Part shown: positions 35,894 through 59,582 of the stretch, in pieces
How positions within the stretch are numbered: position 1 is the first letter of the stretch
How the letters are laid out: every line of letters starts with the position of its first letter
Origin: an uncultured beta proteobacterium
GTDB lineage: Bacteria; Pseudomonadota; Gammaproteobacteria; Burkholderiales; SG8-39
Reading direction: 5' to 3'
NCBI GenBank assembly: GCA_963827595.1
Contig: CAWHBT010000016.1
Location: 172,803 to 236,802, forward strand
DNA length: 64,000 nucleotides
The notes under the pieces: model-generated
What the model saw: only the letters and a program-made list of their open reading frames with translations
Told to the model about the DNA's origin: nothing
Database searches by the model: none
Program-made: the position numbers and the translations under genes

Positions 35894-35924
35894 GCAACTC
35901 TTGCAATCCCAGCGCAACGTTTAC
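35894..35924. promoter_or_regulatory. paired candidate activator sites (UAS)
   Basis: GCAACTCTTGC (35894) and GCAACGTTTAC-CGCG (35914), centres 20 bp apart and 48 and 68 bp upstream of the GG of the 35966 promoter. Confidence 0.45.
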
Positions 35925-35965
35925 CGCGGCACCGCCTTCAGTGCCACCTGCCCCGCCAACGGCGG

Positions 35966-35981
35966 GGGCACGCGCATTGCG
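35966..35981 (+). promoter_or_regulatory. putative sigma54 -24/-12 promoter
   Basis: 5'-GGGCACGCGCATTGCG-3', exact GGCAC-N5-TTGC. The -12 GC is 53 nt before ATG 36033. Confidence 0.65.
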
Positions 35982-36032
35982 TGGCGTCAGGTGCAATGGC
36001 CCTTCGCCAACCTTTGATAGAGGAACCATGCG

Positions 36033-36407
36033 ATGCTGAAGAAGACCCTTATGGCGACGATCGTTAGTGCCGCCCTGGCGAGCGGCTCCGCGCTGGCGCA
36101 GTCGGCCTCGGAGCGCAGCCCGAGCGATGGCCGCAGCGGCGGTACCGGTGTGCCTTCCGCGGTCAGCGGCGCGACGCCTTCAGTCGGCGCGGACGAGCAC
36201 GTTTGGCGTGATTCCTGGCGCTACGACAGTCGGGTGATGCCATACAGCCTCACGGACGGCCGCAGCGGGGGCGCCGGAGTGCCTTCCAGCGTGAACGGCG
36301 CCGTGCCCTCGACGACGCCGACCGAAGACCTCGGCCGGCTGAACGCGGGTAACCACGCCAGCGTGCAGCAGTCCTCGGTGTTCGCCCCGGACCGCTTCGC
36401 GCAATAG
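36033..36407 (+). CDS. secreted hypothetical protein with internal repeat
   Basis: SD GAGGA. Signal peptide MLKKTLMATIVSAALASGSALA|Q. Two copies of DGRSGG[TA]GVPS[AS]V[SN]GA[TV]PS. No family recognised. Confidence 0.6.
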   Translation: MLKKTLMATIVSAALASGSALAQSASERSPSDGRSGGTGVPSAVSGATPSVGADEHVWRDSWRYDSRVMPYSLTDGRSGGAGVPSSVNGAVPSTTPTEDLGRLNAGNHASVQQSSVFAPDRFAQ

Positions 36408-36422
36408 CGTTCGTCTCCAAAA

Positions 36423-36461
36423 GAGCAAAGAGTCTGGCAGCGTCTCGCCAGGCTCTTGCTC
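36423..36461 (+). terminator. long imperfect hairpin downstream of 36033-36407
   Basis: GAGCAAAGAGTCTGGC-agcgtctc-GCCAGGCTCTTGCTC (~15 bp stem, one bulge). Weak T tract (CGTTAT). Confidence 0.45.
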
Positions 36462-36511
36462 GTTATGGGTCGCCCCGGCGCGGGTAGCCGGTAACTCTTA
36501 CGCGCCGGGAC

Positions 36512-36527
36512 CGGGCACGAAGTGTGC
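36512..36527 (+). promoter_or_regulatory. putative sigma54 promoter
   Basis: 5'-GGGCACGAAGTGTGCG-3' (GG-N10-GC, -12 element GTGC). The -12 GC is 41 nt before ATG 36567. A GTAACTCTTACGCG motif sits at 36490-36503. Confidence 0.45.
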
Positions 36528-36566
36528 GCGTGACACGACCGTGCGCCCGGACGCGACGCGGTACGG

Positions 36567-37328
36567 ATGACCCAAAGCCACGGCCAGGTCGGGCCGACGG
36601 TCGTCGCCACGTACAACATCCACCGCGCGATCGGCCGCGACGGTGCTTTCGATCCTGCCCGCGTCGCCGAGGTCCTGGCCGAGATCGATCCCCACGTCAT
36701 CGCGCTCCAGGAGGTCCAGAGCGGGGCCGCGGGCCGCGACCTGATCCAGCTCTGCCGCGAGCGGCTCGGGGCCGAGGCGATCAGCGGGGTCACGATGCTG
36801 CGTAAGGACGCGGAGTACGGCAACGCGATCCTCACGCGCCATCCGGTGCTCGCGGTGGCGCGCCTCGACCTAAGCGTGCCCCCGCACGAGCCGCGCGGTG
36901 CGCTCGACGTGCGGCTCGACTGCGCCGGCCGGCCGCTTCGCGTCGTCGCCACCCATCTCGGTCTCTGGCCCTACGAGCGGCGGTGGCAGGTGCGGCAGCT
37001 GCTCGCGTTGCTCGATGACGGGGACGATCTCCCGACCGTGTTGCTGGGCGATCTCAACGAATGGTGGCTATGGGGGCGGCCCGTACGCTGGCTGCATGCG
37101 CAGTTCCGGCGGACACCGGCGCCGCCGACCTTCCCGTCCCGCCTGCCGGTGTTCGCGCTCGACCGGCTGTGGGTCCGGCCGCGCAGCCTGCTGCAACGAC
37201 TGACGGTGCATAGGAGCCCGCTCGCGCGGATCGCCTCCGACCATCTGCCGCTGGTCGCGACGCTCGACGGCTCAAGCGGCGAGCAGCACCAGAGCGCTCG
37301 CCGCGACGCTCGTGGCGAGACCCCTTAG
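36567..37328 (+). CDS. endonuclease/exonuclease/phosphatase (EEP) family protein
   Basis: VATYNIHRAIG, VIALQEV, GDLNEW and a C-terminal SDHLPLVA, the hallmarks of the EEP fold. Confidence 0.8.
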   Translation: MTQSHGQVGPTVVATYNIHRAIGRDGAFDPARVAEVLAEIDPHVIALQEVQSGAAGRDLIQLCRERLGAEAISGVTMLRKDAEYGNAILTRHPVLAVARLDLSVPPHEPRGALDVRLDCAGRPLRVVATHLGLWPYERRWQVRQLLALLDDGDDLPTVLLGDLNEWWLWGRPVRWLHAQFRRTPAPPTFPSRLPVFALDRLWVRPRSLLQRLTVHRSPLARIASDHLPLVATLDGSSGEQHQSARRDARGETP

Positions 37329-37390
37329 CGCGGCGCGTGCGAGGAGCACCGAGAAGTCCATGATGGTCGAGATACGATCGCGATCAGGGG

Positions 37391-37891
37391 TCATGCGCTC
37401 GCGCGTCGGTCCCGATCCGCGCGCGCCGGTTGTTGCTCCAGGTACTCCTTCAGGGCGGCGAGCATCACCTTCCAGTTCGCCGCGGAATGATCGCGCGCCT
37501 CATCGGTCGGATTGTTGTCTTGCGCAAGCAAGACGCGAGTCTGGTTTCCCTCGCCCCACAATTCGATGGTCACGCTGTGGTAGCTCTCCGGCTTGTCGGG
37601 CAGCCCGGACCTCGGGCTGAAGTGACTGTAGCGAATCGATCTTCCCGGTTCGATCCGCAGGACCACGCCCTTGTCGGCGAATGGCTTGCCCTGCCACTCC
37701 CCTTTCCAGACGATTGGGCTTCCCTCGCGCCAGTCCGTGACGACATCCGTCCCGAACATGTACTGCTTGATCGCTTTGGGATTCACGAGCGCCTCCCAGA
37801 CCCGGTCGCCGGGAGCATTGATCGTGACCGCAGCCCTGGCGATCAGATTGTCCATGCGTCGCTCCTCGGTCGGGGATTTCACGTTTGTCAT
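37391..37891 (-). CDS. SRPBCC / AHSA1 (activator of Hsp90 ATPase-like) domain protein
   Basis: 166 aa from MTNVK. INAPGDRVWEALVNPKAIKQYMFG...SIRYSHF...TIELWGEGNQTRV is typical of the AHSA1/START-like fold. Its start overlaps the upstream stop (ATGA). Confidence 0.7.
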   Translation of the reverse strand: MTNVKSPTEERRMDNLIARAAVTINAPGDRVWEALVNPKAIKQYMFGTDVVTDWREGSPIVWKGEWQGKPFADKGVVLRIEPGRSIRYSHFSPRSGLPDKPESYHSVTIELWGEGNQTRVLLAQDNNPTDEARDHSAANWKVMLAALKEYLEQQPARADRDRRASA

Positions 37892-38520
37892 GACGGCGTC
37901 CGGTCGGGTGAAACATCCTGCAGCGCCTGCTGCACGACGCGGCGCAGGCGCTCCGTCTCGCCGAGCACCTTGCGCGCATAGCGGTTCTCGTCGTCGTCCT
38001 GCCAACCCGCGTAGCGCTGCAGGCCGGCTCGCAGATTTCCCGTCTTGCGCAGGTATTCCTTGAGGATCTGGGTGCCGACGAGCACGTTGACCCGCGGATC
38101 GGCGAGCGCCGCCTCGCCGCCGTGCTCGACGAGCTTCTCGCGGTGAAAGCGCGGCACCACCTGCATCAGTCCGCGCGCGCCGAACCCGCTGCGCGCCGCC
38201 GGATTGAAGCTCGACTCGACAGCCATGACCGCCAGGACGAGCAACGGGTCGAGATCGAACTCGGCCGCAGCGGCGTGCGCCTCGTCGACGAACACCCGTG
38301 TGTCCTCGCGCTCGACCCGATACCGGTCCGAGAGATAGGCGACGAGCGCCGCGCGGCGCGGGTCCGGCGCGGGCGGCAACTCGAGCAACTCGATTGTGAT
38401 CTCCTTGATCGGCGGGCCTTGCAGCGTGAACGTCCGGGCACCGCTGAGCGTGAAGACGGCGATGGCCGCGAGCACGCAGGCGGCAAGCGTCCGGCCGAGG
38501 GTGTCCTCGGTCAGGTTCAT
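37888..38520 (-). CDS. lytic transglycosylase (SLT domain) with N-terminal TM anchor
   Basis: AVMAVESSFNPAARSGFGARGLMQV catalytic block. Start taken at MNLTEDT (38520), but in-frame starts exist up to 38601. Confidence 0.8.
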   Translation of the reverse strand: MNLTEDTLGRTLAACVLAAIAVFTLSGARTFTLQGPPIKEITIELLELPPAPDPRRAALVAYLSDRYRVEREDTRVFVDEAHAAAAEFDLDPLLVLAVMAVESSFNPAARSGFGARGLMQVVPRFHREKLVEHGGEAALADPRVNVLVGTQILKEYLRKTGNLRAGLQRYAGWQDDDENRYARKVLGETERLRRVVQQALQDVSPDRTPS

Positions 38521-38681
38521 GCCTTCAAGCCGCACGCCGCTTGACGGCATAGCTGCCCGGCGCCACATGGTCAGGCTCCTATTGCAGAAATCGCTTCTCA
38601 AAGGGGCTTGTCGTGCCGGCGGTCACTCTCGTTCCCGCTTGCGCGGCAGGCGCCGTACTGCGGTGCTGCTGGCCGGACCAC

Positions 38682-38697
38682 TGCAACTGCCGTACCA
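38682..38697 (-). promoter_or_regulatory. putative sigma54 promoter
   Basis: Minus strand 5'-TGGTACGGCAGTTGCA-3' (GG-N10-GC, perfect TTGCA -12). Upstream of the SLT-SRPBCC operon. Confidence 0.45.
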
Positions 38698-38755
38698 GGC
38701 CGCGCTGCCTTCAGGAATCAAGGGGTTGCTGCGATAGCAGAGAAAATCGCCGCGT

Positions 38756-38788
38756 GTAACGCTTACCGGACACGGGTAAGAGAGGTAC
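38756..38788. promoter_or_regulatory. paired candidate activator sites
   Basis: GTAACGCTTAC-CGG (38756) and GTAAGAGAGGTAC (38776), centres ~21 bp apart and 65 and 86 bp upstream of the 38696 GG. Confidence 0.35.
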
Positions 38789-38838
38789 ATCGGTCGCAGC
38801 GGCCGGCACGCCGGCCCCGGGCCCACGCCCCTTAGGGA

Positions 38839-41800
38839 CTAGTTGCGGGAGTCCGCCCGCGGGATGGATGCCACGGTCCGCCCCGACGGACCGTAGCCGA
38901 TCAGCGCCTGGATCGCGGTGACGAGTCGATCCGCATCAACCGGCTTGCCGACGCGGTCCTGGAACCCGGCCACGCGGAGCCGTTGTCGGTCGACCTGGGT
39001 AAACGCCGTCACCGCGATCGCGGGCACGCGCTCGACGCCGCGCTCGCCCTCCATCGACCGCACGCGCGCAAGAACGGCGAATCCGTCCTCGTCCGGCATC
39101 GCGAGATCGAGCAACAGCACGTCGGGACGGCTCCCGGGAAACAGTTCGTCCAGTCGGGCGAGGAGCGCCTCGCCCGACGCGAAAAGCTCGACGCTCGCAC
39201 CCGCCTGCCGGAGCACGAGTCCGACGGTGTCGCGCGCATCAGGATCGTCGTCCACGAGGAACACGCCGAACCCGGTCAGACGCCCCGGGGCATGCACGCG
39301 CTCGGGCGCTGCCGGCACCCGCTCGGCCTCCACGCCGGGAGGCGGTACCGGCAGGTCGACGCTGAAGGTGGCGCCCCGACCCGGACCCTCGCTTTCGGCG
39401 CGGGCCTCGCCACCGTGCAGCTCGATGATGTTTCGCACCAGCGCGAGACCGATCCCGAGCCCGCCCGCGCGGCGGGTGGTCGAGGTATCGGCCTGCGTGA
39501 ACCGTTCGAAAACGTGCGGCAGGAACTCCGGCGCGATCCCCGCACCGTTGTCGCGCACCGCGAGCCGGATGCGGTCGCCGACGCGCCGCACCGCGGTCTC
39601 GATCATGCCGTCCTGCGGCGTGAACTTGATCGCGTTCGACAGCAGATTCGTGAGCACCTGCTGCAGACGGACCGGGTCGCCGTCGACCGTGATCCGCGGC
39701 TGGCCGAGCGTCGCGCGCAGCTCGATCCGCTTCGCGGCGGCGGCCGGCCGGGCGATCTCGATCGCGGCGTGCACGACGTCGACCAGGTTGATGGCGTGCC
39801 GCTCGAGGGTGAGCTTGCCGCTCATGCTCCGCGAGGTATCCAGGATGTCGTCGATGAGCCGTGCCTGGTGCTCGACGTTGCGCTTGATCGCGGCGGTGGC
39901 GCGCTCGAGGAGGCCCGCCTCGAGCGGCCGGGTGCTCGCGAGCAGGTGGCCCCACCCGCGCAGCGCATTGAGCGGCGAGCGCAGCTCGTGCGAGACGATC
40001 GCGAGAAACTCATCCTTCGCGCGATTGGCGCGTTCGGCTTCCTCCCGCAGCTGCTGCTCCTCGGCGACCAGGATCTCGAGCTCGCGCTCGGCCCGCTTGC
40101 GCTCGGTGATATCGGTGGCCACGCCGACGAGCCCCACGATGCGGCCCTGCTCGTCGCGCAGCGGCGACTTCGTGGTGAGATAGGTCCGCGAGCCGACAGC
40201 ACCAGGGAAGACTTCCTCCACGGTGAGCGATTGGCCCGATTCGATGACGACCCGGTCGTGCTCGGCCTTCGCCCGCCCTGCCTCGAGGTCGGTGGCGAGC
40301 TCGAGGCTGCTCCGGCCGAGAAGCTCGCGCTCTTCCTTGCCGGTGGCGCGCACGTACGCCGCGTTCACCATCAGCAGCCGACCCTCGACGTCCTTGGCAA
40401 AGATGAGCTCCGACGTGCTCGCGGTGATCGTGCCGAGGAGGTGGGTGCGCTCGCGCAGCGCGGCGGTCGCCTGCTCCAGCGCCGCCGTGCGCTCGATCAC
40501 GCGGGCGTCGAGCTCGACGTAGGCGCGGCGCATGGCGCGCTCGGCGACCCGGCGCTGGGACGCGTCGTGAACGATGAGCACCGCGCCGGTGAACTCCCCG
40601 CGCGGATCGCGGATCGGCGCCGCGCTGAGATCGACCGGATGCAACCGCCCTTCCGCGACCCGGAGCGCCGGCTCGCCCTCGCCGAGCGCGATCTCGCCCG
40701 ACTGCAGCGCGCGGTCGAGGGGCGACTCGGTCTCCATCCCGGTGTGCTCGTCGACGACGTGCAGCAGCTCGCCGACGGCGCGTCCGACGGCGGCGGCCTC
40801 GGAGCAGCCAGTCAGTCGTTGCGCAGCGGTGTTCAAGAACCTGACTCGCCCGGAGCGGTCGGTGGCGATCACGCCGTCGCCGATGCTCGCGAGGACGACC
40901 CGGAGCGACTCGCGCTGGGCGCGGGCGTCGTCCTCGGCACGTTGGCGCCGGGTGTTCATGCGATCGACCTCGCGGGCGACCCAGAGCGTGAGCGCCCCGA
41001 GCCCGGCGATCGTCAACAGCACGAGCATGCCCTGGCCCAGCGGCTCGTCCACGGCGCCGTAGTACTGCCCCGCCAGCTGGAGCAGATGCGCGACGATCGG
41101 GACGACGATCGCCGCCGGCAGGAGCCAGCGGCTCATCACCGCGCCCGGCCGCTCGCTCGACAGCAGGTCGAGCAGCCACGCGTCCGGGCGCGCGGCGAGC
41201 AGGCTCGTGCCGAGCAGCAGGAAGGCGATCGCGCTCGGCAGCCCCATCCCGAAGAGCGGCGCGACGCCGTACAGCAGCAGCAGGCGGAAGCTGAGCCCGA
41301 CGAGGGCAAGGCTCGCGATCGCAACGATCGCGCCCGCTATCACGCGGTGCGCCAACTCGACCCGGCGCGCCGCGAGGGGCGAGAGCACGATCCCGGCCGC
41401 AACCAGCAGGAAGGTCGCCGCGGTGACCTCCGGCATCAGCCTGGGGATGTCGGCGTTGCCCCCCAGCCCCAGAAACCCGAGATCCAGTCCGGTCTGGATC
41501 CCCAGGACGTGGCCGGCGAGCATCAGCGCCGCGATCGCGGCTACAACGCCGGCGCCGATCCGCGCCCGACGCTGCGCCGGCTCGGTGCGCCGCCACGCGG
41601 CGGCCAGCGCCCAGCTCGCGATCAGGAACGACAACGCGGTGGACAGCTGCGCCGAAGGGAAGTCGGCGCCGAACGTCCGCAGGAACTCCAAGTCGATCAG
41701 CCAGCCGGCGACGACGCCGAGCATGATCGCCGCGACCAGCGCGTTGCCGACGCGGGCGAGCGTCGCCAGCGCCCGGCGCGTCGCCGCCTCGCGCTCCGTC

Positions 41801-41886
41801 AGCGGCCTTGCCGTCGCGCCGGTGCGATTGGCCGACGACACGGTCTCGGGTGCAGACGCGGGGTCGCTGGGGACGGCGTTCGGCAT
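38839..41886 (-). CDS. membrane-bound hybrid sensor histidine kinase (multi-TM sensor, 3 PAS, HisKA, HATPase_c, receiver)
   Basis: 1015 aa with ~8 predicted TM helices at the N-terminus. H-box FLAIVSHELRSPLNAL, NLLSNAIKFT, DNGAGI, GLGIGLALV, receiver VFLVDDDPDARD...LLLDLAMPDEDG...KP. Confidence 0.85.
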   Translation of the reverse strand: MPNAVPSDPASAPETVSSANRTGATARPLTEREAATRRALATLARVGNALVAAIMLGVVAGWLIDLEFLRTFGADFPSAQLSTALSFLIASWALAAAWRRTEPAQRRARIGAGVVAAIAALMLAGHVLGIQTGLDLGFLGLGGNADIPRLMPEVTAATFLLVAAGIVLSPLAARRVELAHRVIAGAIVAIASLALVGLSFRLLLLYGVAPLFGMGLPSAIAFLLLGTSLLAARPDAWLLDLLSSERPGAVMSRWLLPAAIVVPIVAHLLQLAGQYYGAVDEPLGQGMLVLLTIAGLGALTLWVAREVDRMNTRRQRAEDDARAQRESLRVVLASIGDGVIATDRSGRVRFLNTAAQRLTGCSEAAAVGRAVGELLHVVDEHTGMETESPLDRALQSGEIALGEGEPALRVAEGRLHPVDLSAAPIRDPRGEFTGAVLIVHDASQRRVAERAMRRAYVELDARVIERTAALEQATAALRERTHLLGTITASTSELIFAKDVEGRLLMVNAAYVRATGKEERELLGRSSLELATDLEAGRAKAEHDRVVIESGQSLTVEEVFPGAVGSRTYLTTKSPLRDEQGRIVGLVGVATDITERKRAERELEILVAEEQQLREEAERANRAKDEFLAIVSHELRSPLNALRGWGHLLASTRPLEAGLLERATAAIKRNVEHQARLIDDILDTSRSMSGKLTLERHAINLVDVVHAAIEIARPAAAAKRIELRATLGQPRITVDGDPVRLQQVLTNLLSNAIKFTPQDGMIETAVRRVGDRIRLAVRDNGAGIAPEFLPHVFERFTQADTSTTRRAGGLGIGLALVRNIIELHGGEARAESEGPGRGATFSVDLPVPPPGVEAERVPAAPERVHAPGRLTGFGVFLVDDDPDARDTVGLVLRQAGASVELFASGEALLARLDELFPGSRPDVLLLDLAMPDEDGFAVLARVRSMEGERGVERVPAIAVTAFTQVDRQRLRVAGFQDRVGKPVDADRLVTAIQALIGYGPSGRTVASIPRADSRN

Positions 41887-41910
41887 ACCGGAGTGATTCG
41901 TAAGGTCCTA

Positions 41911-45108: not shown

Positions 45109-45117
45109 GGGGAGCGC

Positions 45118-45146
45118 AAAAAAAGAACCCGCCGAGGTGGCGGGCG
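45118..45146 (-). terminator. rho-independent terminator
   Basis: Minus strand GCGCCCGCC-ACCTC-GGCGGGTTC followed by TTTTTTT. A second 9-bp hairpin (GTTTCAGCC-n13-GGCTGAAAC) lies at 45152-45182. Confidence 0.7.
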
Positions 45147-45304
45147 CAATTGTTTCAGCCGAGGAGCGGGGGAGGCTGAAACAGGGGAGGGTCAGTCAGT
45201 CGTTCACCCCGAAGGGAACGGTCTTGGCTCAAGCACCCCGCGTGCCACCGCGCGCGGCTGCGATTCTCCTGCCCAATCAGCGGCGCGTCTCCCGAACCCG
45301 TCAC

Positions 45305-45334
45305 GTAACTCTTACGCGATGTGGTAACGGCTAC
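45305..45334. promoter_or_regulatory. paired GTAAC-N2-yTAC motifs
   Basis: GTAACTCTTAC-GCG (45305) and GTAACGGCTAC-GCG (45324), centres 19 bp apart, ~200 bp upstream of the 45107 promoter and overlapping the stop of 45331-45564. Confidence 0.35.
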
Positions 45335-45743: not shown

Positions 45744-47198
45744 CTAGGCGGGGGTGGTGCGCCCGACCGTCGCGGCGCCGGACTTGGCCGTCGCCGGCGG
45801 CGGGCCGACCTCTCCTTCCGCCGCCAACTCCGGCGGCGAAGGGGTGACGCCCTTCTCCGCGGCCGCCTCCGCGCTGTAGGCCGTGAGCTTGTTGTAGAGC
45901 GTCTTCAGGCTGATGCCGAGCATCTCCGCCGCCTTGCGCTTCACGTTGCCGCACTCCGCAAGCGTCGCCTCGATCAGCCGCCGGTTGACCTCCTCGAGCG
46001 TCGTGCCGATCCGCACGGTGAGCAGCGGCGACCGCGTGGGCTCGACGAGTTCCTCGGGCGCGAGCTCCAGGTCGATCACCTTGTCGGCGAGGATGTGCGC
46101 GCGCTGGACGTAGTTCTTCAGCTCGCGCACGTTGCCCGGCCAGCTGTGCGCGTAGAGCGCAGCGATGGCCGCCGGCGCGAACACCTTGCTCGTGCCCTCC
46201 TCCTCGTTCAACCGGTCGAGGAAGTGCTGGGCGAGGATCTCGATATCGGTGCCGCGCTCGCGCAGCAGCGGCATCTGGATCGGGAACACGTTGAGCCGGT
46301 GGAAGAGGTCCTCCCGCAGCTTGCCTTCGGCGACCGCCTTCTCCGGCACGCGGTTGGTCGCGGCGATCATCCGGACGTCGGTCGCGATCGGCGTGTTCAT
46401 CCCGACGCGCATGAAGGTGCCGGTCTCGAGCACGCGCAGGAGCTTGACCTGGAGCTCGTGCGGCATCTCGGTGATCTCGTCGAGGAACAGCGTGCCGCCG
46501 TGGGCACGCTCGAAGAACCCCTTGTGCTGGCGATCGGCGCCGGTAAAGCTGCCCTTTTCGTGGCCGAAGAGCTCGCTCTCGATGAGCTGCGGCGACACCG
46601 CGCCGCAGTTGAGCGGCAGGAACGGCGCGCGCTTGCGCCGGCTGAGCTCGTGGATCGTCTGCGCGGCGAGCTCCTTGCCGGTACCGCTCTCGCCGATGAG
46701 CAGCACGGTGGCGGAGGTCGGCGCGACGCGCCCGAGCTGGTCGTAGAGCTTCTGGATCGGCGGCGACTGGCCGAGGATGTGGCCGAACCGGCCCAGCTTG
46801 CGCAACTCCTGCCGCAGCTCGCCGATCTGCGCGCGCAGCTCGTCCGGACGCGGCACGCGCCGCAGGATCGCCTTCAGCCGCTCGACGTCCGCAGGCTTGA
46901 CGAGATAGTCGGTCGCGCCGGCGCGCAGCGCCTCGATCGCGCTCTCGGTGCTCGCGTAGCCGGTCATGACGACGAACTCGGTCGAATCGCGCCGCTCGAG
47001 GTCGGTGACGAGCTCGATGCCCTGCCCGTCGGGCAGGATGAGGTCGGTCAGCAGCACGTCCGGGGCGAGACGCGTCAGCTGAATGCGCGCGGCGCGCAAC
47101 GAGTCGGCGGTCGCGACCGTGAAGCCCTCCCCTTTGACGAACTCCGCGAGCCAATCGAGCGTTTCCGGGTCGTCATCGACGAGCAGCACGTGCGGCAT
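45744..47198 (-). CDS. sigma54-dependent response regulator (NtrC-family bacterial enhancer-binding protein)
   Basis: Receiver domain (VLLVDDDPE...LLTDLILPDG...KP). AAA+ core with Walker A GESGTGKE, the sigma54-contact loop ELFGHEKGSFTGA (GAFTGA variant), and R-finger/Walker B DEI. C-terminal Fis-type HTH KRKAAEMLGISLKTLYNKL. Confidence 0.9.
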   Translation of the reverse strand: MPHVLLVDDDPETLDWLAEFVKGEGFTVATADSLRAARIQLTRLAPDVLLTDLILPDGQGIELVTDLERRDSTEFVVMTGYASTESAIEALRAGATDYLVKPADVERLKAILRRVPRPDELRAQIGELRQELRKLGRFGHILGQSPPIQKLYDQLGRVAPTSATVLLIGESGTGKELAAQTIHELSRRKRAPFLPLNCGAVSPQLIESELFGHEKGSFTGADRQHKGFFERAHGGTLFLDEITEMPHELQVKLLRVLETGTFMRVGMNTPIATDVRMIAATNRVPEKAVAEGKLREDLFHRLNVFPIQMPLLRERGTDIEILAQHFLDRLNEEEGTSKVFAPAAIAALYAHSWPGNVRELKNYVQRAHILADKVIDLELAPEELVEPTRSPLLTVRIGTTLEEVNRRLIEATLAECGNVKRKAAEMLGISLKTLYNKLTAYSAEAAAEKGVTPSPPELAAEGEVGPPPATAKSGAATVGRTTPA

Positions 47199-47320: not shown

Positions 47321-47336
47321 CGGCACGCAACTTGCG
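47321..47336 (+). promoter_or_regulatory. putative sigma54 -24/-12 promoter
   Basis: 5'-CGGCACGCAACTTGCG-3', exact GGCAC-N5-TTGC. The -12 GC is 32 nt before ATG 47367. Confidence 0.65.
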
Positions 47337-47366
47337 TACCATCCGTGCTCGCACAAGGAGAACGCG

Positions 47367-47573
47367 ATGACGCGCGGACTCACGATCCTCGCCGCGGCGA
47401 CGCTGACTGTCGGGGCGAAACACCTGCTGCGCTACCTGCGCCGGAACGGTACACGGCGTGCGCAGCGCGAGGCGCTGCAGACGTGGGAGGGCGAAGGGGG
47501 TGCGGTGCCGGTCACCCGCTCGACCACTGCCGCGCAGGTTCCCCCTCTGCGCGGCGCCGACCGCGCGCGTTAG
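47367..47573 (+). CDS. hypothetical 68-aa protein with WEGEGG motif
   Basis: SD AAGGAG. N-terminal hydrophobic segment (LTILAAATLTVGA), a basic stretch, then LQTWEGEGGAVP. Divergent from the activator gene. Confidence 0.5.
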   Translation: MTRGLTILAAATLTVGAKHLLRYLRRNGTRRAQREALQTWEGEGGAVPVTRSTTAAQVPPLRGADRAR

Positions 47574-48413: not shown

Positions 48414-48445
48414 GTAACTTCTTCAGTACCTCCGGCAAAACCTAC
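48414..48445. promoter_or_regulatory. paired candidate activator sites
   Basis: GTAACTTCTTC (48414) and GCAAAACCTAC (48435). Centres are 21 bp apart, 72 and 51 bp upstream of the 48491 GG. Confidence 0.4.
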
Positions 48446-48489: not shown

Positions 48490-48505
48490 TGGCACGCCCC
48501 ATGCT
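48490..48505 (+). promoter_or_regulatory. putative sigma54 promoter
   Basis: 5'-TGGCACGCCCCATGCT-3' (perfect TGGCAC, -12 element ATGCT). The -12 GC is 60 nt before ATG 48564. Confidence 0.55.
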
Positions 48506-50946: not shown

Positions 50947-50977
50947 GTAACAGCTACACCAGCGCTGCAGTTCCTAC
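50947..50977. promoter_or_regulatory. orphan pair of GTAAC-N2-yTAC-type motifs
   Basis: GTAACAGCTAC (50947) and GCAGTTCCTAC (50967), centres 20 bp apart. The second 11-mer is identical to 51971-51981 upstream of rpoN. No promoter was found at the usual distance. Confidence 0.3.
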
Positions 50978-51958: not shown

Positions 51959-51970
51959 CGGGCCAGGCGC

Positions 51971-52000
51971 GCAGTTCCTACCTCCGTCGGTAAGTTCTTC
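51971..52000. promoter_or_regulatory. paired candidate activator sites upstream of rpoN
   Basis: GCAGTTCCTAC (51971) and GTAAGTTCTTC-GCG (51990). Centres are 19 bp apart, 61 and 42 bp upstream of the 52037 GG. Confidence 0.35.
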
Positions 52001-52035: not shown

Positions 52036-52051
52036 GGGCACGGGCCTTGCA
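52036..52051 (+). promoter_or_regulatory. putative sigma54 -24/-12 promoter in front of rpoN itself
   Basis: 5'-GGGCACGGGCCTTGCA-3', exact GGCAC-N5-TTGCA. The -12 GC is 73 nt before ATG 52123. Confidence 0.6.
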
Positions 52052-52122
52052 GGGTACGTAAGGAACCGCGCCGCCGATGTGCGGCGATGCGCCCTGACGA
52101 CCCGGGCAACAGGAGGACACGG

Positions 52123-53565
52123 ATGGGTCAGACCATGGAGCTGCGGCTGCGGCAGCACCTCACGCTCACGCCACAGCTGCAGCAGGCGCTGCGGCTGCTG
52201 CAGCTCTCCGCGCTCGAGTTCGAGCAGGAGATGCGGGAAGCGCTCGACACCAATCCGTTTCTCGAGGACGAGGAGGACGCAGCCCGCGTCAACGGGTCGG
52301 GCTCCGAACCGGCGACGGCGCCGGCGGAAGCTGCCCCTCCCGATTCGGGCGACGTCGCGCCCGCGCCGTCGGAGGCTCCGGACACGCTGCCCGGGATCGA
52401 CGGCCTGCCGCGGAACGCGAACGCGCACGACGGCGACGACACCGACTGGACCGAGTGGTCGGAGGCGCAGCTCACGCTGCGCGACCATCTCCGCCGGCAG
52501 CTCCTGCTCTCGCCGATGGGCGAGCGGGACCGGGGACTCGCGCACCTGGTGATCGACGCGCTGGACGCCGACGGCTATCTCAAGCTGAGCTTCGACGAGC
52601 TCGCGGCGCTGGTGCCGGCGGAGCACGACGTCGAGCCCGACGATCTCGCCGCCGCGCTGCGGCTGGTGCAGACGCTCGAGCCGACGGGCGTCGGCGCGCG
52701 GTCGCTCCAGGAATGCCTGCTGCTCCAGCTGCAGGCGCTGCCGGAGGGGACGACCGGCCGGCCCATCGCCCTCGCGCTCGTCGGCGAGCACATCGCGCTG
52801 CTCGCGGCGCGCGAGTTCGTGCGCCTGCAACAGCTGCTCGGTTGCAGCGACTCCGATCTGCACGTGGCGCGCAACCTGATCCGCTCGTTGAACCCGAAGC
52901 CGGGAGACCGGTACGGCCCGGACGACACGCGCTACGTCGTGCCGGACGTCATCGTGAGCAAAGTCCGCAACCGCTGGACCGCGACCATCAATCCGGCGGT
53001 CCAGCCGCGGATCCGCATCAACCGCGCCTACGCCGACCTGGTCGGTGCCCGCGCCACCGGCGGCCAGCAAATGTCGCGGCAGCTCCAGGAGGCGCGGTGG
53101 CTGATCCGCAACATGCAGCAGCGGTTCGTCACCATCCAGCGGGTCGCCGATGCGATCGTCGCGAAGCAGCGCAACTTCTTCGAGTACGGCGAAGTGGCGA
53201 TGAAGCCGCTCGGCCTGAAGCACATCGCCGCCCAGCTCGGGCTGCACGAGTCCACGGTCTGCCGGGTCACGAACGGCAAGTACATGGCGACCGCGCGCGG
53301 GCTGTTCGAGTTCAAGCGGTTCTTCTCGCGGCAGCTTGCGACCGACAACGGCGGCGCCTGCTCGGCAACGGCCATCCGTGCGCTGCTCAAGGAGCTGATC
53401 GCCAGCGAGCGGCCGGCGAATCCGCTGTCGGACGCCCAGCTCGCACGCCTGCTCGCCGGCCAGGGACTGCACGTGGCGCGGCGGACGGTGACCAAGTACC
53501 GGACGCTCATGCGGGTGCCGAGCGTCGAGCTGCGGCGCGCGTCGGCGCGCACCGCGGCGGCGTAG
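52123..53565 (+). CDS. rpoN: RNA polymerase sigma-54 factor
   Basis: SD AGGAGG. Region I MELRLRQHLTLTPQLQQALRLLQLSALEF, an acidic linker, a core-binding domain, the HTH HESTVCRVTNGKYM and the RpoN box ARRTVTKYR. Confidence 0.92.
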   Translation: MGQTMELRLRQHLTLTPQLQQALRLLQLSALEFEQEMREALDTNPFLEDEEDAARVNGSGSEPATAPAEAAPPDSGDVAPAPSEAPDTLPGIDGLPRNANAHDGDDTDWTEWSEAQLTLRDHLRRQLLLSPMGERDRGLAHLVIDALDADGYLKLSFDELAALVPAEHDVEPDDLAAALRLVQTLEPTGVGARSLQECLLLQLQALPEGTTGRPIALALVGEHIALLAAREFVRLQQLLGCSDSDLHVARNLIRSLNPKPGDRYGPDDTRYVVPDVIVSKVRNRWTATINPAVQPRIRINRAYADLVGARATGGQQMSRQLQEARWLIRNMQQRFVTIQRVADAIVAKQRNFFEYGEVAMKPLGLKHIAAQLGLHESTVCRVTNGKYMATARGLFEFKRFFSRQLATDNGGACSATAIRALLKELIASERPANPLSDAQLARLLAGQGLHVARRTVTKYRTLMRVPSVELRRASARTAAA

Positions 53566-54154: not shown

Positions 54155-54164
54155 GCACCCCTGC

Positions 54165-55208: not shown

Positions 55209-55249
55209 GCCGCGCGCGCAGCAGGCGACGGCGGGCGCCGCCGCCCGGC

Positions 55250-55576: not shown

Positions 55577-55608
55577 GGGGTTCTCCGGAAGGTCGATACC
55601 GCTTCCGG

Positions 55609-55624
55609 TGCAAGCGGCGTGCCG
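55609..55624 (-). promoter_or_regulatory. putative sigma54 -24/-12 promoter
   Basis: Minus strand 5'-CGGCACGCCGCTTGCA-3', exact GGCAC-N5-TTGCA. The -12 GC is 34 nt before ATG 55576. Confidence 0.65.
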
Positions 55625-55656
55625 GGGGGCCCGCCGTCGTGCGTCGTTGAGACCGC

Positions 55657-55947
55657 CTAGTCCGCGCCCGCGAAGTCCCAGGTGACGCCGCGGCTCGCCG
55701 TGGTGCAGGTGACGACCCGGTTGCCGATCTCGAGCCGAACGACGAAGCCGCTCCCGTCGCTGAGGTAACTGGGTTTGTCGACGCTCACGATGCGGCCGAA
55801 CGCTCGGCCCTCCCGAGCGTCGGGATCCGTCACCCAGACCCGGCGCCCCGGGGTGATTTTGTCGTTGGCCACCGCAGCGCCGCCCCTCCGGCGCACCGGA
55901 CCAGCTGGGTTGTGCCCTCCCTGGGCGCAGCTGGGCCGAGGCACCAT
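55657..55947 (-). CDS. small hypothetical protein (start uncertain; the 71-aa version from GTG 55872 is preferred)
   Basis: VANDKITPGRRVWVTDPDAREGRAFGRIVSVDK...VVRLEIGNRVVTCTTASRGVTWDF. High GC3 and a beta-rich look. SD-like GGAGGGG lies 12 nt before the GTG. No family recognised. Confidence 0.35.
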   Translation of the reverse strand: MVPRPSCAQGGHNPAGPVRRRGGAAVANDKITPGRRVWVTDPDAREGRAFGRIVSVDKPSYLSDGSGFVVRLEIGNRVVTCTTASRGVTWDFAGAD

Positions 55948-55979
55948 AGCCCGGGGGAGGGGTGGGGTCAATAGGCGGT

Positions 55980-55995
55980 AGGCACGCGGCTTGCA
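55980..55995 (+). promoter_or_regulatory. putative sigma54 -24/-12 promoter
   Basis: 5'-AGGCACGCGGCTTGCA-3', exact GGCAC-N5-TTGCA. The -12 GC is 36 nt before ATG 56030. Confidence 0.65.
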
Positions 55996-56029
55996 GGTCG
56001 TTGCGGAACCCCGCCAAGGAGAGCCCGCC

Positions 56030-56581
56030 ATGTCCAAACAGCCGTTCCTGACCGACATCAAAACCATCCGCGCCCGCGCCCGCCGCCACATCGAGGAGGG
56101 CGCAGTGACCGAGAACTACGGTGCCGACAAGCCCACCGTGCTGCGGCTGCTGAACGAGGCGCTCGCCACCGAGATCGTCTGCACGCTGCGCTACAAGCGC
56201 CACTACTTCATGGCGAAGGGCCTCACCTCGGCGGGGGTCGCCGCGGAGTTTCTCGAGCACGCCAAGGAGGAGGAAGGCCACGCCGACCAGTTCGCCGAGC
56301 GGATCGTCCAGCTCGGCGGCGAGCCGAACTTCGACCCCGAGGGGCTCACCACCCGCAGCCACGCGGAGTACATCGAGGGCAAGTCGCTCGTCGACATGAT
56401 CCGCGAGGACCTCGTGGCCGAGCGGGTGGCGATCGAGAGCTACCGCGACATGATCCGCTACGTTGGCGAGGGCGACCCGACGACGCGGCGGCTGCTCGAG
56501 GACGTGCTCGCGGTCGAAGAGGAGCACGCCGAGGACCTGGTCACCCTCATCGAGGGGATCGGCCGGAAGCAGAACGGTTGA
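56030..56581 (+). CDS. ferritin-like / bacterioferritin-family protein
   Basis: SD AAGGAGAG. LLNEALATEIVCTLRYKRHYF, EHAKEEEGHADQFAERI and AVEEEHAEDL are di-iron ligand helices (E, ExxH x2). Confidence 0.85.
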   Translation: MSKQPFLTDIKTIRARARRHIEEGAVTENYGADKPTVLRLLNEALATEIVCTLRYKRHYFMAKGLTSAGVAAEFLEHAKEEEGHADQFAERIVQLGGEPNFDPEGLTTRSHAEYIEGKSLVDMIREDLVAERVAIESYRDMIRYVGEGDPTTRRLLEDVLAVEEEHAEDLVTLIEGIGRKQNG

Positions 56582-56652
56582 GCCGCCGCGCGGCTCAACC
56601 GGAACGTTCCGCGTTCTGCCCCAGCCCGCGACCGCCACGCGCGGCTTGCCCT

Positions 56653-57286
56653 TCAGCGGCGCGCCAGGTTCTCGGACGCGAACTCCCAGTTCAGCAGCTT
56701 CTCGACCACCGCCTTGACGTGCTTGTCCCGCTTGTTCTGGTAGTCGAGGTAGTAGGCGTGCTCCCAGACGTCGACCGTCAGCAGCGGCGTCTTGCCCTGC
56801 ACGACCGGCGTGTGCGCGTCGGGGGTCGTGACGATCTCGAGCGCGCCGCCGTTCGCGACCAGCCACGCCCAGCCGCTGCCGAAGTGCCCGGTGGCCGCGC
56901 GCCGCAAACGCCTTCATGAACGCGTCGTAGCCGCCGAGATCACGGTCGAGTAGGCGGCGCAGCGCCTCGCTCGGTTTCCCGGGCTTCGGCGTCAGGCTCT
57001 CCCAGTAGAACGCGTGGTTCAGCGCCTGACCAGCGTTGTTGAAGACTTCGGCGCGAGCCGGGTCGTCCCGGGTGCGCTTGACGATCTCCAGCAACGGCAG
57101 GCGCTCGAGGTCGGTGCCCGCGACCAGCTCGTTGAGCTTCTCGACGTAGGCGCGATGGTGCTTGCCGTGATGGAGCTCGATCGTGCGCTTCGAGATCACC
57201 GGTTCGAGCGCGTGCCTCGCCCATGGCAGGGCGGGGAGGGTGAAGGGGCCGGGCGCGGTGGCTGCGCGGGGGAGTGGAGCGTTCAT
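56653..57286 (-). pseudogene. sodB: Fe/Mn superoxide dismutase interrupted by a 1-nt insertion
   Basis: The N-terminal frame reads FTLPALPWARHALEPVISKRTIELHHGKHHRAYV...NNAGQALNHAFYW...YDAFMKAFAA. The C-terminal frame reads AATGHFGSGWAWLV...LLTVDVWEHAYYLDYQN. The shift falls in GCGGCG-C-GCGGCC near 56900, and the span is 3n+1 nt. Confidence 0.85.
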
Positions 57287-57326
57287 CGCGGAATCCTTTC
57301 GTCGGGTTGCGTGCAGTGGGTCGGGG

Positions 57327-58649
57327 TCACAGGAAGTACTCCCAGCGGCGCGCGAACCATTCGCGCGCCCGCTCGATCGGGCCACGCCGCGCCCACTCGT
57401 CGCGGGTGAGCTCGTGCGAGGCCGCGACGTCGCGCGCGAACAAGCGCTCCAGATCCCGGGCGAAGGCTTCGCCGAGGACGATGACGTCGGCCTCGTAGTT
57501 GTGGACGAAGCTGCGCCAATCGAGGTTCGTGGAGCCGACGCTGGACCAGACGCCGTCGATGACCGCGGTCTTGGCGTGCAGCAGCGCGTCGCGGCGCTCG
57601 AAGATGCGCACGCCGGCGCCGAGCAGGTCCGCGTAGTGCGAGCGGCCGGCGTAGAGCGGCGCCCAGAAGTCGCTGAACCCCGGCAGCACGAGCCGGACGT
57701 CGACGCCGCGGGCGGCGGCGCCTTTCAGCGCCGCGACTGTCGCCGCATCGGGAACGAAGTAGCCGTACGTGAGCCATACGCGGCGCTCGGACTGCTCGAC
57801 CGCGGACAACAGGGCGACGTACATTTCGCTCGCGCCCAACTCCGGGTCGCTCGTGACGAGGCGCATGGTCCAGTCGCCGCGCTCGGCGGCGCGGGGGAAG
57901 TACGCCGCTCGCGCGGGCGTCTCGCACTGCTGCTGCGCCCACGCGTCGAGGAACACGCGCTGGAACTGGGCGACGATCGGCCCGCGGGTGGCGATATGAG
58001 TGTCGCGCCAGCGGTCGTCGCTCGATGGCGCGGCCCGAGTGCTGCCGAACGACCCCGCCGAGTACACGCCGCTGATGTTGATGCCGCCGGTGAACGCGAC
58101 CTGCCCGTCGACGACCAGGATCTTGCGGTGGTCGCGGTTATTGATCTGCCAGCCCTTGGGGGCCTTCAGCGGATTGACGGGGTTGAACTCGCAGACGGCG
58201 ATGCCGGCGGACCGGAGACCCTCGAAGAACGCCTTCGGCGTCCGCATCGAGCCGACGCCGTCGTACAGGACGTTCACCTGCACGCCCTGGCGACGCTTGC
58301 GGACCAGCAGGTCGGCGAGGCGCTCGCCGACGCCGTCCGCGTCCAGAATGTAGGTCTGCAGGTTGACGTGGTTCCGCGCGCGTCGGATGGCGTCGAACAT
58401 CGCCCGGTGAGTCGCCGGGCCGTCGACGAGCAGCCGCCCTTCGTTGCCTCGCACGAGCGGGGCGTCGAGGGCATGCTCGACCTCCGCCAGATGACGGGCG
58501 AGGAGATCGGAGGTTCCTTCGCGCTCGAGCTCCCGCGCGACCGCGGCCGCCCGTTGCGCCGGCAGCGCGCCGTCCGCGCCGACGACCTGGACCGGTCGTG
58601 CCTCGGGCGCCGGCCGGGCGCCGGCTGGAGCGCCGGCAACCCCGCGCAA
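57327..58649 (-). CDS. phospholipase D-family cardiolipin synthase (ClsB-like, two HKD motifs)
   Basis: HRKILVVDGQVAFTGGINIS and HAKTAVIDGVWSSVGSTNLD. The track start is a TTG. An ATG at 58696 in another frame encodes a lipoprotein-type signal peptide (MRVRHVLVAIGLAAAAC), so a further frameshift near 58600-58650 is possible. Confidence 0.8.
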   Translation of the reverse strand: MRGVAGAPAGARPAPEARPVQVVGADGALPAQRAAAVARELEREGTSDLLARHLAEVEHALDAPLVRGNEGRLLVDGPATHRAMFDAIRRARNHVNLQTYILDADGVGERLADLLVRKRRQGVQVNVLYDGVGSMRTPKAFFEGLRSAGIAVCEFNPVNPLKAPKGWQINNRDHRKILVVDGQVAFTGGINISGVYSAGSFGSTRAAPSSDDRWRDTHIATRGPIVAQFQRVFLDAWAQQQCETPARAAYFPRAAERGDWTMRLVTSDPELGASEMYVALLSAVEQSERRVWLTYGYFVPDAATVAALKGAAARGVDVRLVLPGFSDFWAPLYAGRSHYADLLGAGVRIFERRDALLHAKTAVIDGVWSSVGSTNLDWRSFVHNYEADVIVLGEAFARDLERLFARDVAASHELTRDEWARRGPIERAREWFARRWEYFL

Positions 58650-58728
58650 GCCGCGGCGGCAAGGCCGATGGCGACGAGAACGTGTCGAACGCGCACGGCC
58701 CGCCGCCGCGTGAGTCAGCAGCGTCGCG

Positions 58729-59046
58729 TCAGGACGTCGGCTTGACGTGCATGTCGTTCTTGACGCTCCGGACGCCGGAGACCTTCTCGGCCGCGGTCAC
58801 GGCCTTCTGCGCCATTTCGGTGGAGTCGACGAAGCCGCTCAGCGACACCGTGCCCCGGAACGTCTGGACGTTGATCGCTGTCGACTTGACGCCGGGCTCC
58901 TGGATGAGCGCACTCTTGACGAGGGTCGTCAGCGTCGAGTCGTCTATGACTTCGCCGGTCATCCGGGTCTGGTTCGAGGCGCACCCGGCGCCCGCGAGGA
59001 GCGCGGCGGCGAGGACGGCACCGAGTAGCGAATTGAGCTTGCTCAT
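58729..59046 (-). CDS. BON-domain lipoprotein (OsmY-like)
   Basis: Lipobox LAGAGC. BON core DDSTLTTLVKSALIQEPGVKSTAINVQTFRGTVSLSGFV. Confidence 0.8.
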   Translation of the reverse strand: MSKLNSLLGAVLAAALLAGAGCASNQTRMTGEVIDDSTLTTLVKSALIQEPGVKSTAINVQTFRGTVSLSGFVDSTEMAQKAVTAAEKVSGVRSVKNDMHVKPTS

Positions 59047-59070
59047 GTTCGGTTCCTTTCTGTCAGTTCG

Positions 59071-59451
59071 TCAGCTCGCGCCGACGGTGAGCTTGTTGTC
59101 GACGTCCTTCACGCCCTCGATCCCGCGCGCGACCTGCGTAGCGCGCTGGACCTGGGCCTGGTCGGGCACCTTGCCGCTGAGCGTCACGTTGCCCTGGCTG
59201 GTGTCGACGTTGATGCGCATGCCGTCGACGCCCTTCTCGGCGAGCAGCGCCGCCTTCACCTTGGCGGTGATCCCGGCGTCATCGATGGTCTGGCCGGCGG
59301 TCCGGTCGGCCGCGGGGGGCGTCGGCGTTGCGGGCGCCGTTCGGGGCGACGGGGCAGTGGACACGCGATCGCCTGCGGGACGATCGCAGCCGGCGAGGCC
59401 GGTGAGCATCGCGAGGGCCGCTGCGGCGACAAGAGTGGTGGGAAACTTCAT
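59071..59451 (-). CDS. BON-domain lipoprotein (OsmY-like)
   Basis: SD AAGGAG. Lipobox LTGLAGC, a Pro/Ala linker, and BON core DDAGITAKVKAALLAEKGVDGMRINVDTSQGNVTLSGKV. Confidence 0.8.
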   Translation of the reverse strand: MKFPTTLVAAAALAMLTGLAGCDRPAGDRVSTAPSPRTAPATPTPPAADRTAGQTIDDAGITAKVKAALLAEKGVDGMRINVDTSQGNVTLSGKVPDQAQVQRATQVARGIEGVKDVDNKLTVGAS

Positions 59452-59493
59452 CTGAGGCTCCTTTCGTACGGATGAGTGATGCGACCGGAAAGG

Positions 59494-59509
59494 GGCAATC
59501 GCCATGCCC
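59494..59509 (-). promoter_or_regulatory. putative sigma54 promoter of the BON-BON-cls-sodB gene string
   Basis: Minus strand 5'-GGGCATGGCGATTGCC-3' (GG-N10-GC). The -12 GC is 44 nt before ATG 59451. Confidence 0.55.
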
Positions 59510-59552
59510 GGGTCGGGGCGGAGGGCCTGGAGGCACCGACCGTCCCACCCCG

Positions 59553-59582
59553 GTAACCCTTGCCGTCCGCTGCAGGATTTAC
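59553..59582. promoter_or_regulatory. paired candidate activator sites shared by divergent promoters
   Basis: GTAACCCTTGC (59553) and GCAGGATTTAC-CGCG (59572), centres 19 bp apart. They lie 50 and 69 bp from the 59508 GG (minus) and 95 and 76 bp from the 59653 GG (plus). Confidence 0.45.

Follow-up and report, generated by a model that had tools for sequence, protein, structure and literature searches.

Which protein recognises the short AT-rich palindromes that recur, mostly in twos, between the genes of a regulatory and stress island in an uncultured betaproteobacterium? The island occupies kilobases 33-63, as delimited by codon-position GC and Pfam scans, of a 64,000-nt stretch of DNA with a GC content of ~70% (assembly GCA_963827595.1, contig CAWHBT010000016.1, positions 172,803 to 236,802; hereafter the window), and it encodes an NtrC-family response regulator, that is, a bacterial enhancer-binding protein (bEBP), together with a paralogue of rpoN, the gene for sigma-54. 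A first-pass annotation had proposed that the palindromes are enhancers, or upstream activating sequences (UAS), of nearby sigma-54 promoters. We find that the paired sites are probably the UAS of this bEBP, whose gene lies at 45744-47198.

To locate the sites, a 13-column matrix was trained solely on other genomes and then run on the window with a pair threshold of 20 bits, using 100 dinucleotide shuffles and the flank (window 1-33000) as controls. The consensus, (G/T)GTAA-n-W-n-TTAC(C/A), is an 11-bp palindrome that occurs in pairs with centres 18-21 bp apart. Seven pairs of at least 20 bits were found (those beginning at 35894, 45305, 47246, 48414, 50947, 51971 and 59553; Table 1), all of them among the eight pairs listed in the first-pass annotation, as compared with a mean of 0.0-0.02 in the shuffles, and none was found in the flank, so that within the 64-kb window only there are 0 pairs in the 33 kb outside the island and 7-8 inside. 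The core GTAANNNTTAC, with up to one mismatch allowed, matched nine times (0.93 +/- 0.89 in shuffles), each time at a position already on the first-pass list (9/9), and all six window matches to GTAACNNYTAC fell within the island. No third site flanks any pair (best score, -0.7 bits), and there is no extended repeat around the sites. The looser 11-mer by which the motif had originally been defined, G(T/C)A(A/G)N3(T/C)T(A/G/T)C, is too permissive for this purpose: it matches 72 times on both strands of the 64 kb versus 21.6 expected, many of these matches being GCAG...CTGC in coding DNA, and the "17 occurrences" reported with it therefore represent a selection. All 17 sequences are indeed present, but the site placed at 36490 begins at 36491, and the one at 38776, GTAAGAGAGGTAC, does not fit the 11-mer, so that the supposed pair at 38756 consists of a strong single site and a degenerate partner.

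The pairing is a general property of the motif. A genome scan for orthologues of the bEBP, which are ~80% identical across uncultured Burkholderiales, yielded 80 loci with 1.41 Mb of DNA, spanning Burkholderiales, Rhodocyclaceae (Aromatoleum, Azoarcus, Methyloversatilis) and Steroidobacteraceae (L-numbers below denote loci of related genomes or metagenome contigs). Near-consensus sites in this set formed 66 pairs at spacings of 18, 19, 20 and 21 bp (11, 23, 27 and 5 pairs, respectively), and every other spacing from 11 to 44 bp gave only 0-2; eight control cores, comprising six composition-matched palindromes and two spacer variants, gave 0-9 pairs at 19-21 bp versus 55 for the motif. The sites thus combine dyad symmetry (GTAA-N3-TTAC) with helix phasing (18-21 bp), both of them marks of a bEBP UAS.

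The motif is also conserved at orthologous positions. Of the 41 betaproteobacterial loci inspected, ~30 carry the same pair immediately before the bEBP gene (for example, GTAAGAATTAC-N8-GTAAGAGTTGC in L004). This placement next to the bEBP gene is conserved in Burkholderiales and Rhodocyclaceae, and Steroidobacteraceae carry there a variant, GTAAAAnGTAC-N7-GCAAAAAGTAC, with 18-bp spacing and the GTA-N5-TAC core in common. When orthologous spacers are aligned (A2 and A3), nothing is conserved but the ribosome-binding site, the -24/-12 element and the two sites; A2 covers the region of the 47246 pair and constitutes a phylogenetic footprint. In A3, where the 48414 sites and the 48490 promoter are kept in L001-L003 (the promoter with the same sequence in L001 and L002 and with one base changed in L003), the window is 10 bp shorter between sites and promoter than L001 and L002, an indel of one helical turn, as a dependence on the helix face would predict.

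The distance between the pairs and the sigma-54 promoters is likewise reproducible, as befits a bEBP UAS. In the window, 7 pairs have their site centres at 42-85 bp from the GG at -24 (Table 1). The 48-51 bp originally reported for four promoters (35966, 47321, 48490 and 59509) were reproduced as 48, 50, 51 and 50 bp, as were the 42 and 61 bp for the pair at 51971, which are measured to promoter 52036; at 38756 the 65 bp held and the second centre, given as 86 bp, measured 85, to promoter 38697. The pair at 45305, described as an exception ~200 bp from its promoter, is no longer one, because a strong match at 45247(-) had been overlooked. Among the relatives, we collected 51 promoter-pair distances within 130 bp, each measured between the midpoint of a pair and the GG of the closest good sigma-54 promoter, and these fell largely into narrow classes: +70 to +76 bp (17 cases, with a mode of 72), +60 to +66 bp (6 cases) and -78 to -81 bp (12 cases).

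Genes downstream of a pair with its promoter, in the window or in relatives, include those for the bEBP itself, an AI-2E transporter operon with CsbD, a hybrid kinase, DUF883 and BON proteins and a conserved exported protein; as in the window, the rpoN orthologues of L003, L009, L018, L029 and L038 are preceded by both elements. In 39 of 81 loci an rpoN gene lies within the DNA that flanks the bEBP orthologue (up to 10 kb per side was covered), and hybrid kinases as well as a REC-only protein show similar linkage to this orthologue; on the strength of this linkage, the bEBP, the rpoN paralogue and the kinases form a module. We further performed the reverse test, scanning metagenome contigs for the exact pair. 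Most matches were AT-rich chance matches or tandem repeats. The counted set comprised the 19 contigs of at least 50% GC; in 9 of these a correctly oriented sigma-54-like promoter lay 40-130 bp from the pair, whereas the promoter density of these contigs would predict 0.63. One hit (L151) also encodes a bEBP orthologue (64% identical) with the same GSFTGA loop.

The nearby candidate activator has both a sigma-54-interaction domain and a DNA-binding HTH (Pfam Sigma54_activat, 2.9e-68; HTH_8, 2.2e-13). It is the sole bEBP in the window, and no other DNA-binding regulator was found in the island, which is why the sites are assigned to it. The protein falls under every named NCBIfam equivalog cut-off (AtoC, NtrC, ZraR, NtrX, GlrR, the PEP-CTERM response regulator and others), its best scores being 388 bits versus 714 for AtoC, 378 versus 559 for NtrC and 348 versus 503 for PEP_resp_reg. 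Its sigma-54-contacting loop (residues 216-221) reads GSFTGA rather than GAFTGA, as it does in the one other orthologue examined (L151), and together with the tight rpoN linkage this might reflect a private pairing of activator and sigma factor. All 80 orthologues of the genome scan, and the one from Ralstonia, have an unchanged recognition helix, G(I/V)SLKTLYNRL (the window reads ...YNKL), which fits the common GTA-N5-TAC core.

The highest-scoring pair (47246) lies beside the bEBP gene and had been taken to suggest autoregulation. That idea is supported, but the pair is located downstream of the bEBP-directed promoter, in the leader, and not upstream of it. The -78 to -81 bp class above corresponds to this promoter, a conserved TGGC-N7-TTGC element that faces the bEBP gene. 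In the window and its closest relatives the element is palindromic (47321-47341; TGGTACGCAAGTTGC within it is invariant in L001-L004 and has one base changed in L025), and it scores as a good sigma-54 promoter on both strands: the + strand points to an open reading frame (ORF) for 68 amino acids at 47367-47573, relative to which this pair stands upstream, at +60, and the - strand to the bEBP gene. If both orientations fire, this would be a bidirectional sigma-54 promoter with one shared binding site. The sites near the bEBP gene overlap no promoter of the sigma-70 type.

In summary, the motif is non-random, paired at a fixed spacing and conserved at orthologous positions; it stands at a fixed distance from conserved -24/-12 elements and is genetically linked to the bEBP and rpoN. 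The proposal that the paired motif is an enhancer is thus supported by the spacing peak, the fixed promoter distances, the footprints, the metagenome reverse test and the presence of a sole island regulator. From the sequences we infer the identity of the binder, activation through its binding, the sign of its effect at the leader position, the signal and the sigma-54 (housekeeping or paralogue) that reads the promoters.

Several observations weigh against the assignment of the sites as UAS of the bEBP. The strong site at 36491 has no partner within 18-22 bp on either side and abuts a weak -24/-12 match, 36513(+), at a distance of only ~18 bp, which gives it no enhancer geometry. The pair at 50947, as already remarked in the first-pass annotation, has no credible -24/-12 element within 250 bp, and good -24/-12 matches without a pair occur at 33213, 45108, 49800, 55624, 55980 and 63226, the second half of that annotation's own list of exceptions (49800, 55624, 55980) being confirmed and extended by the other three. 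The DNA upstream of the pairless candidates (33213, 45108, 47590, 49800, 51706, 55624, 55980 and 63226) shares only generic GC-rich words and no alternative motif; these promoters may depend on distant sites or on a different activator. In Rhodocyclaceae and Steroidobacteraceae, the bEBP-adjacent pairs are often without a promoter at the usual distance, at the threshold used. The position of the pair downstream of the start at the bEBP promoter could mean repression by a roadblock instead of activation. Finally, a comparison of the helix-turn-helix and the motif between the beta and gamma clades was uninformative as to the binder, because the recognition helix is invariant.

A first alternative, which we consider unlikely, is that these are real regulatory sites with a different binder, namely an unlinked transcription factor, a repressor or anti-activator, or a bEBP paralogue devoid of a REC domain. 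The binder was assigned by linkage alone, and the leader position at the bEBP promoter is the classic position of an operator. In Ralstonia two EBPs are adjacent, the second being a REC-less protein beside the orthologue, and because of this paralogue two proteins could share the sites in some genomes, a further point against the bEBP as the only binder. Moreover, a pair that looks similar on the surface, two copies of TAGGTAAAsTTTACCTA, is used by another bEBP family, which has 35% identity and a different HTH; the core alone is therefore insufficient to identify the binder. Set against this are the single bEBP in the window and the lack of any further DNA-binding regulator in the island, the way the motif tracks this bEBP through two proteobacterial classes, and the fixed distance upstream of -24/-12 promoters, which is enhancer geometry.

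This other bEBP family was seen in L117, L171, L083 and L143, metagenome contigs of 42-49% GC that were low-GC matches of the reverse scan, and its HTH reads ...AAELLQISYKSFCEKLKEY. The two copies of its 17-bp palindrome lie 70-91 bp upstream of a sigma-54 promoter, directly after the bEBP gene in L117 and L171. Its architecture is the same as here and its core is similar; the system is an independent one.

The second alternative holds that the sites are architectural, binding IHF or Fis to bend the DNA between a farther enhancer and the promoter. IHF often acts at -70 to -110 of sigma-54 promoters; the Fis core is degenerate, and the inner YA-W-TR pattern of our sites is similar to it. The AT-rich sites do lie at -70 to -110, in the range of IHF action (cf. 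PMC6296734). However, the IHF consensus, WATCAANNNNTTR, has another spacing and is asymmetric, as opposed to 11-bp palindromes whose halves are separated by 3 nt; the sites form doublets at 18-21 bp, a third site is absent, and no motif was detected farther upstream. Their absence from the 33 kb outside the island is also unlike a global nucleoid protein. The IHF site was rejected on spacing and symmetry, given a palindromic matrix of always paired sites, and we regard the architectural explanation as improbable.

The third is more improbable still: the two sites would be the -35 and -10 elements of a promoter for an extracytoplasmic function (ECF) sigma factor of the EcfG type. The gene set (CsbD, Dps, BON, DUF883) is indeed like that of general-stress regulons, and EcfG promoters have a GGAAC -35 element, to which GTAAC is similar. 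Nevertheless, the gap between GTAA elements in the window varies from 14 to 16 nt where this type needs a fixed 16-17 nt, both elements are the same palindrome where the type has GGAAC at -35 and CGTT at -10, their orientation is independent of gene direction, and the pairs keep a fixed distance from conserved -24/-12 elements; spacing and symmetry thus led us to reject an ECF promoter. Chance, composition or the remains of a repeated mobile element, suggested by a loose 11-mer that is permissive and matches coding DNA too, have next to no probability, being refuted by the shuffles, the 18-21 bp spacing peak, the core count and alignment A2, in keeping with sites that are conserved across genomes when their flanks are not and with the lack of an extended repeat.

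If the sites are the UAS of the bEBP, the regulator would be phosphorylated, presumably by the linked PAS hybrid kinases, and two of its dimers would bind two sites about two helical turns apart. The bound dimers would nucleate the AAA+ ring and contact the sigma-54 holoenzyme at a -24/-12 promoter whose GG lies ~50-85 bp from the pair midpoint. Predicted regulatory targets in the window are the regulator's own gene, the rpoN paralogue and one hybrid kinase, and the predicted stress-type targets are two AI-2E transporters, CsbD, two BON lipoproteins, DUF883/holin-X-like proteins, a PLD/cardiolipin-synthase-like protein, SLT, a DksA-like protein and an M48 peptidase; the outcome would be a self-amplifying circuit. 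More tentatively, one may picture an orthogonal sigma-54 system in which the GSFTGA bEBP prefers the linked RpoN paralogue and one enhancer switches on both, a double positive feedback. In Burkholderiales, Rhodocyclales and Steroidobacteraceae, such a system might control a regulon for general stress or dormancy comparable to that of RpoS (BON/OsmY-like, CsbD, Dps-neighbourhood, DUF883, cardiolipin-synthase-like), with one palindromic -24/-12 element firing both ways and the enhancer standing upstream for the divergent gene and in the leader for the bEBP gene.

Table 1. Sites, sigma-54 promoters and regulatory genes of the island (window coordinates; site scores in bits; promoters were scored by a simple -24/-12 score; distances run from the site centres to the GG of the promoter named)
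Position	Strand	Feature	Sequence	Score or basis	Context and distances
35894..35924		Pair	GCAACTCTTGC-N9-GCAACGTTTAC	23.0 bits	Between divergent sigma-54 promoters; 48/68 bp to 35966(+), 36/56 bp to 35864(-)
36491..36501		Lone strong site	GTAACTCTTAC	17.1 bits
38756..38788		Strong site and degenerate partner (5-nt spacer)	GTAACGCTTAC and GTAAGAGAGGTAC	16.4 and 1.8 bits	65/85 bp upstream of 38697(-)
45305..45334		Pair	GTAACTCTTAC-N8-GTAACGGCTAC	25.4 bits	64/83 bp upstream of 45247(-), geometry like 38756; kept in L001-L003
47246..47277		Best pair	GTAACGTTTAC-N10-GTAATTCTTAC	37.9 bits	Between bEBP gene and divergent small gene; 71/50 bp upstream of 47321(+); midpoint 78.5 bp downstream of bEBP-directed 47341(-)
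48414..48445		Pair	GTAACTTCTTC-N10-GCAAAACCTAC	25.7 bits	Upstream of AI-2E transporter/CsbD operon; 72/51 bp to 48490(+)
50947..50977		Orphan pair	GTAACAGCTAC-N9-GCAGTTCCTAC	26.2 bits	Between convergent gene ends
51971..52000		Pair	GCAGTTCCTAC-N8-GTAAGTTCTTC	20.1 bits	Upstream of rpoN paralogue; 61/42 bp to 52036(+)
59553..59582		Pair	GTAACCCTTGC-N8-GCAGGATTTAC	24.9 bits	Between divergent promoters; 50/69 bp from 59509(-), 95/76 bp from 59652(+)
35849..35864	-	Sigma-54 promoter candidate	GGGCACGCGATGTGCT	-24/-12 score	Toward hybrid histidine kinase
35966..35981	+	Sigma-54 promoter candidate	GGGCACGCGCATTGCG	-24/-12 score	Toward ORF 36033-36407
38682..38697	-	Sigma-54 promoter candidate	TGGTACGGCAGTTGCA	-24/-12 score	Toward SLT transglycosylase gene
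45232..45247	-	Sigma-54 promoter candidate	TGGCACGCGGGGTGCT	Score 14	Toward a possible short structured transcript, then DUF883 operon
47321..47341	both	Palindromic -24/-12 element	CGGCACGCAACTTGCGTACCA	Score 13.5 per strand
48490..48505	+	Sigma-54 promoter	TGGCACGCCCCATGCT	-24/-12 score	Toward AI-2E transporter, CsbD and further genes
52036..52051	+	Sigma-54 promoter	GGGCACGGGCCTTGCA	-24/-12 score	Toward rpoN paralogue
59494..59509	-	Sigma-54 promoter candidate	GGGCATGGCGATTGCC	-24/-12 score	Toward BON-domain lipoprotein genes and PLD/cardiolipin-synthase-like gene
59652..59667	+	Weaker sigma-54 promoter candidate	GGGAACAGGTGTTGCT	-24/-12 score	Toward DksA/TraR-like gene, second AI-2E transporter and M48 peptidase
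33303-about 35800	-	PAS hybrid histidine kinase		Pfam
38839-41886	-	PAS hybrid histidine kinase		Pfam
45744-47198	-	bEBP (REC + AAA+ sigma-54-interaction domain + HTH_8)		Pfam	Presumed binder
52087-53565	+	rpoN paralogue (sigma-54)		Pfam, NCBIfam
62715-63179		REC-only protein

By the same simple -24/-12 score, strong sigma-54 promoter matches number ~20 in 33-64 kb versus 2 in the first 33 kb. Besides the regulators, the island carries genes for two AI-2E transporters, CsbD, a Dps/ferritin-like protein, two BON lipoproteins, and DUF883 and holin-X-like proteins, as well as genes for PLD/cardiolipin-synthase-like, SLT, HtrA-like, M48, AHSA1-like and DksA/TraR-like proteins. The Fe/Mn superoxide dismutase gene at 56653-57286 (-) has its N- and C-terminal domains in separate frames; the frameshift, near 56905-56915, reflects either a pseudogene or a sequence error.

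On the - strand 3' of promoter 45247(-), a stretch of ~105 nt (45115-45224) is predicted to fold into three hairpins (-37 kcal/mol, z = -2.8). It contains C-rich CCUCCCC runs, which are anti-Shine-Dalgarno-like, and ends in a terminator-like hairpin (45145-45127) with a T-run. The last two hairpins are kept in L001-L003 (nhmmer E 2e-6 to 2e-4), which makes the candidate only partly conserved, and there the homologous hairpins lie ~1.1-1.4 kb from the pair with an extra gene intervening. The stretch could be a small RNA or an element of a 3' untranslated region; an Rfam scan of 33000-64000 with E up to 1 gave no match.

A weak extra pair of sites, CCCATTCTTAC-N8-GTAGAACTTGC (33074-33103; 15.6 bits), occurs ~120 bp downstream of promoter candidate 33213(-), which precedes dehydrogenase and Bug/TctC-type genes. 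In addition, 13 of the 16 window sites read GTAAC..CTTAC on the + strand irrespective of the direction of the adjacent gene, with C rather than G at spacer positions. This strand asymmetry is probably local noise or compositional skew, since it was not reproduced in the other genomes (27 negative, 23 zero and 15 positive) and has no tie to promoter orientation.

No new principle is involved: the sites would make an ordinary enhancer, that of an uncharacterised bEBP family. What the analysis supplies is a scoring matrix for a conserved enhancer motif, a constant geometry relative to the promoter and a predicted stress-type envelope and protection regulon. Second rpoN copies are widespread in Burkholderiales, and the motif gives a testable regulon for their poorly understood RpoN2, making the role of RpoN2-type paralogues approachable by experiment with respect to the activating stress, the need for RpoN2 and self-amplification. 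It can also be used to annotate the regulon in hundreds of genomes of soil Betaproteobacteria and Steroidobacteraceae.

A literature search for the motif, a characterised orthologue or a bEBP regulon returned only the Ralstonia rpoN2 papers and unrelated systems. The general arrangement is that of the tandem dimer enhancers of the NtrC family (NtrC at glnAp2, DctD, ZraR, AtoC), which have two dyad sites upstream of a -24/-12 promoter, a REC-AAA+-HTH_8 binder, an autoregulated activator gene, and promoter and enhancer conserved together. NtrC-type recognition uses a 17-bp TGCACC-N5-GGTGCA sequence, whereas here the palindrome is a compact 11-bp GTAA-N3-TTAC, the sites are 18-21 bp apart and near the promoter (midpoint about -85 to -100), and the presumed binder has a GSFTGA loop, a linked dedicated rpoN paralogue and scores below all NCBIfam equivalog cut-offs. 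The half-site GTAAC/GTTAC, and its use by an NtrC-family bEBP at sigma-54 promoters, recalls CbrB of Pseudomonas, which recognises TGTTAC/GTAACA subsites at sigma-54 promoters including those of small RNAs, through one forward and two reverse hexamers (F1/R1/R2) under relaxed rules and with IHF dependence; CbrAB has been described as Pseudomonad-exclusive (PMC6296734). A CbrB site was rejected on its arrangement, kinases and lineage: we find two 11-bp palindromes ~20 bp apart, PAS hybrid kinases rather than CbrA-like ones, and a betaproteobacterial host.

The closest known locus is that of Ralstonia solanacearum GMI1000, where two uncharacterised EBPs, RSp1667 and RSp1668, lie beside rpoN2 (RSp1671) (PMC4371752, PMC4676750) and were listed in the Ralstonia rpoN2 paper among those with variant loops. 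Ralstonia rpoN2 has its own sigma-54 promoter and requires rpoN1 for expression (PMC4371752), and two studies of rpoN2 knock-outs reported no phenotype, one calling its role "enigmatic" (PMC4371752, PMC4676750); nor has an enhancer or a regulon been described for this locus. A plasmid database search found the Ralstonia megaplasmid orthologue of our bEBP (63% identical), and on the megaplasmid of a sister strain a GTAA-N3-TTAC pair precedes the published sigma-54 promoter of RSp1674 by ~128 bp. The two loci have in common an orthologous bEBP, a neighbouring rpoN paralogue preceded by a sigma-54 promoter, and a loop of the GSFTGA class; they differ in that Ralstonia has two adjacent EBPs and just one clear pair in the 29 kb examined. 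Finally, in Cereibacter sphaeroides the RpoN3/AprX and RpoN2/FleQ modules couple a second sigma-54 with a dedicated activator and with a private regulon of small size (PMC11999139). These modules resemble the present one in that a dedicated RpoN paralogue is genetically coupled to its cognate bEBP, and they differ in belonging to alphaproteobacteria and in having another activator and other targets (xrpA, flagella).

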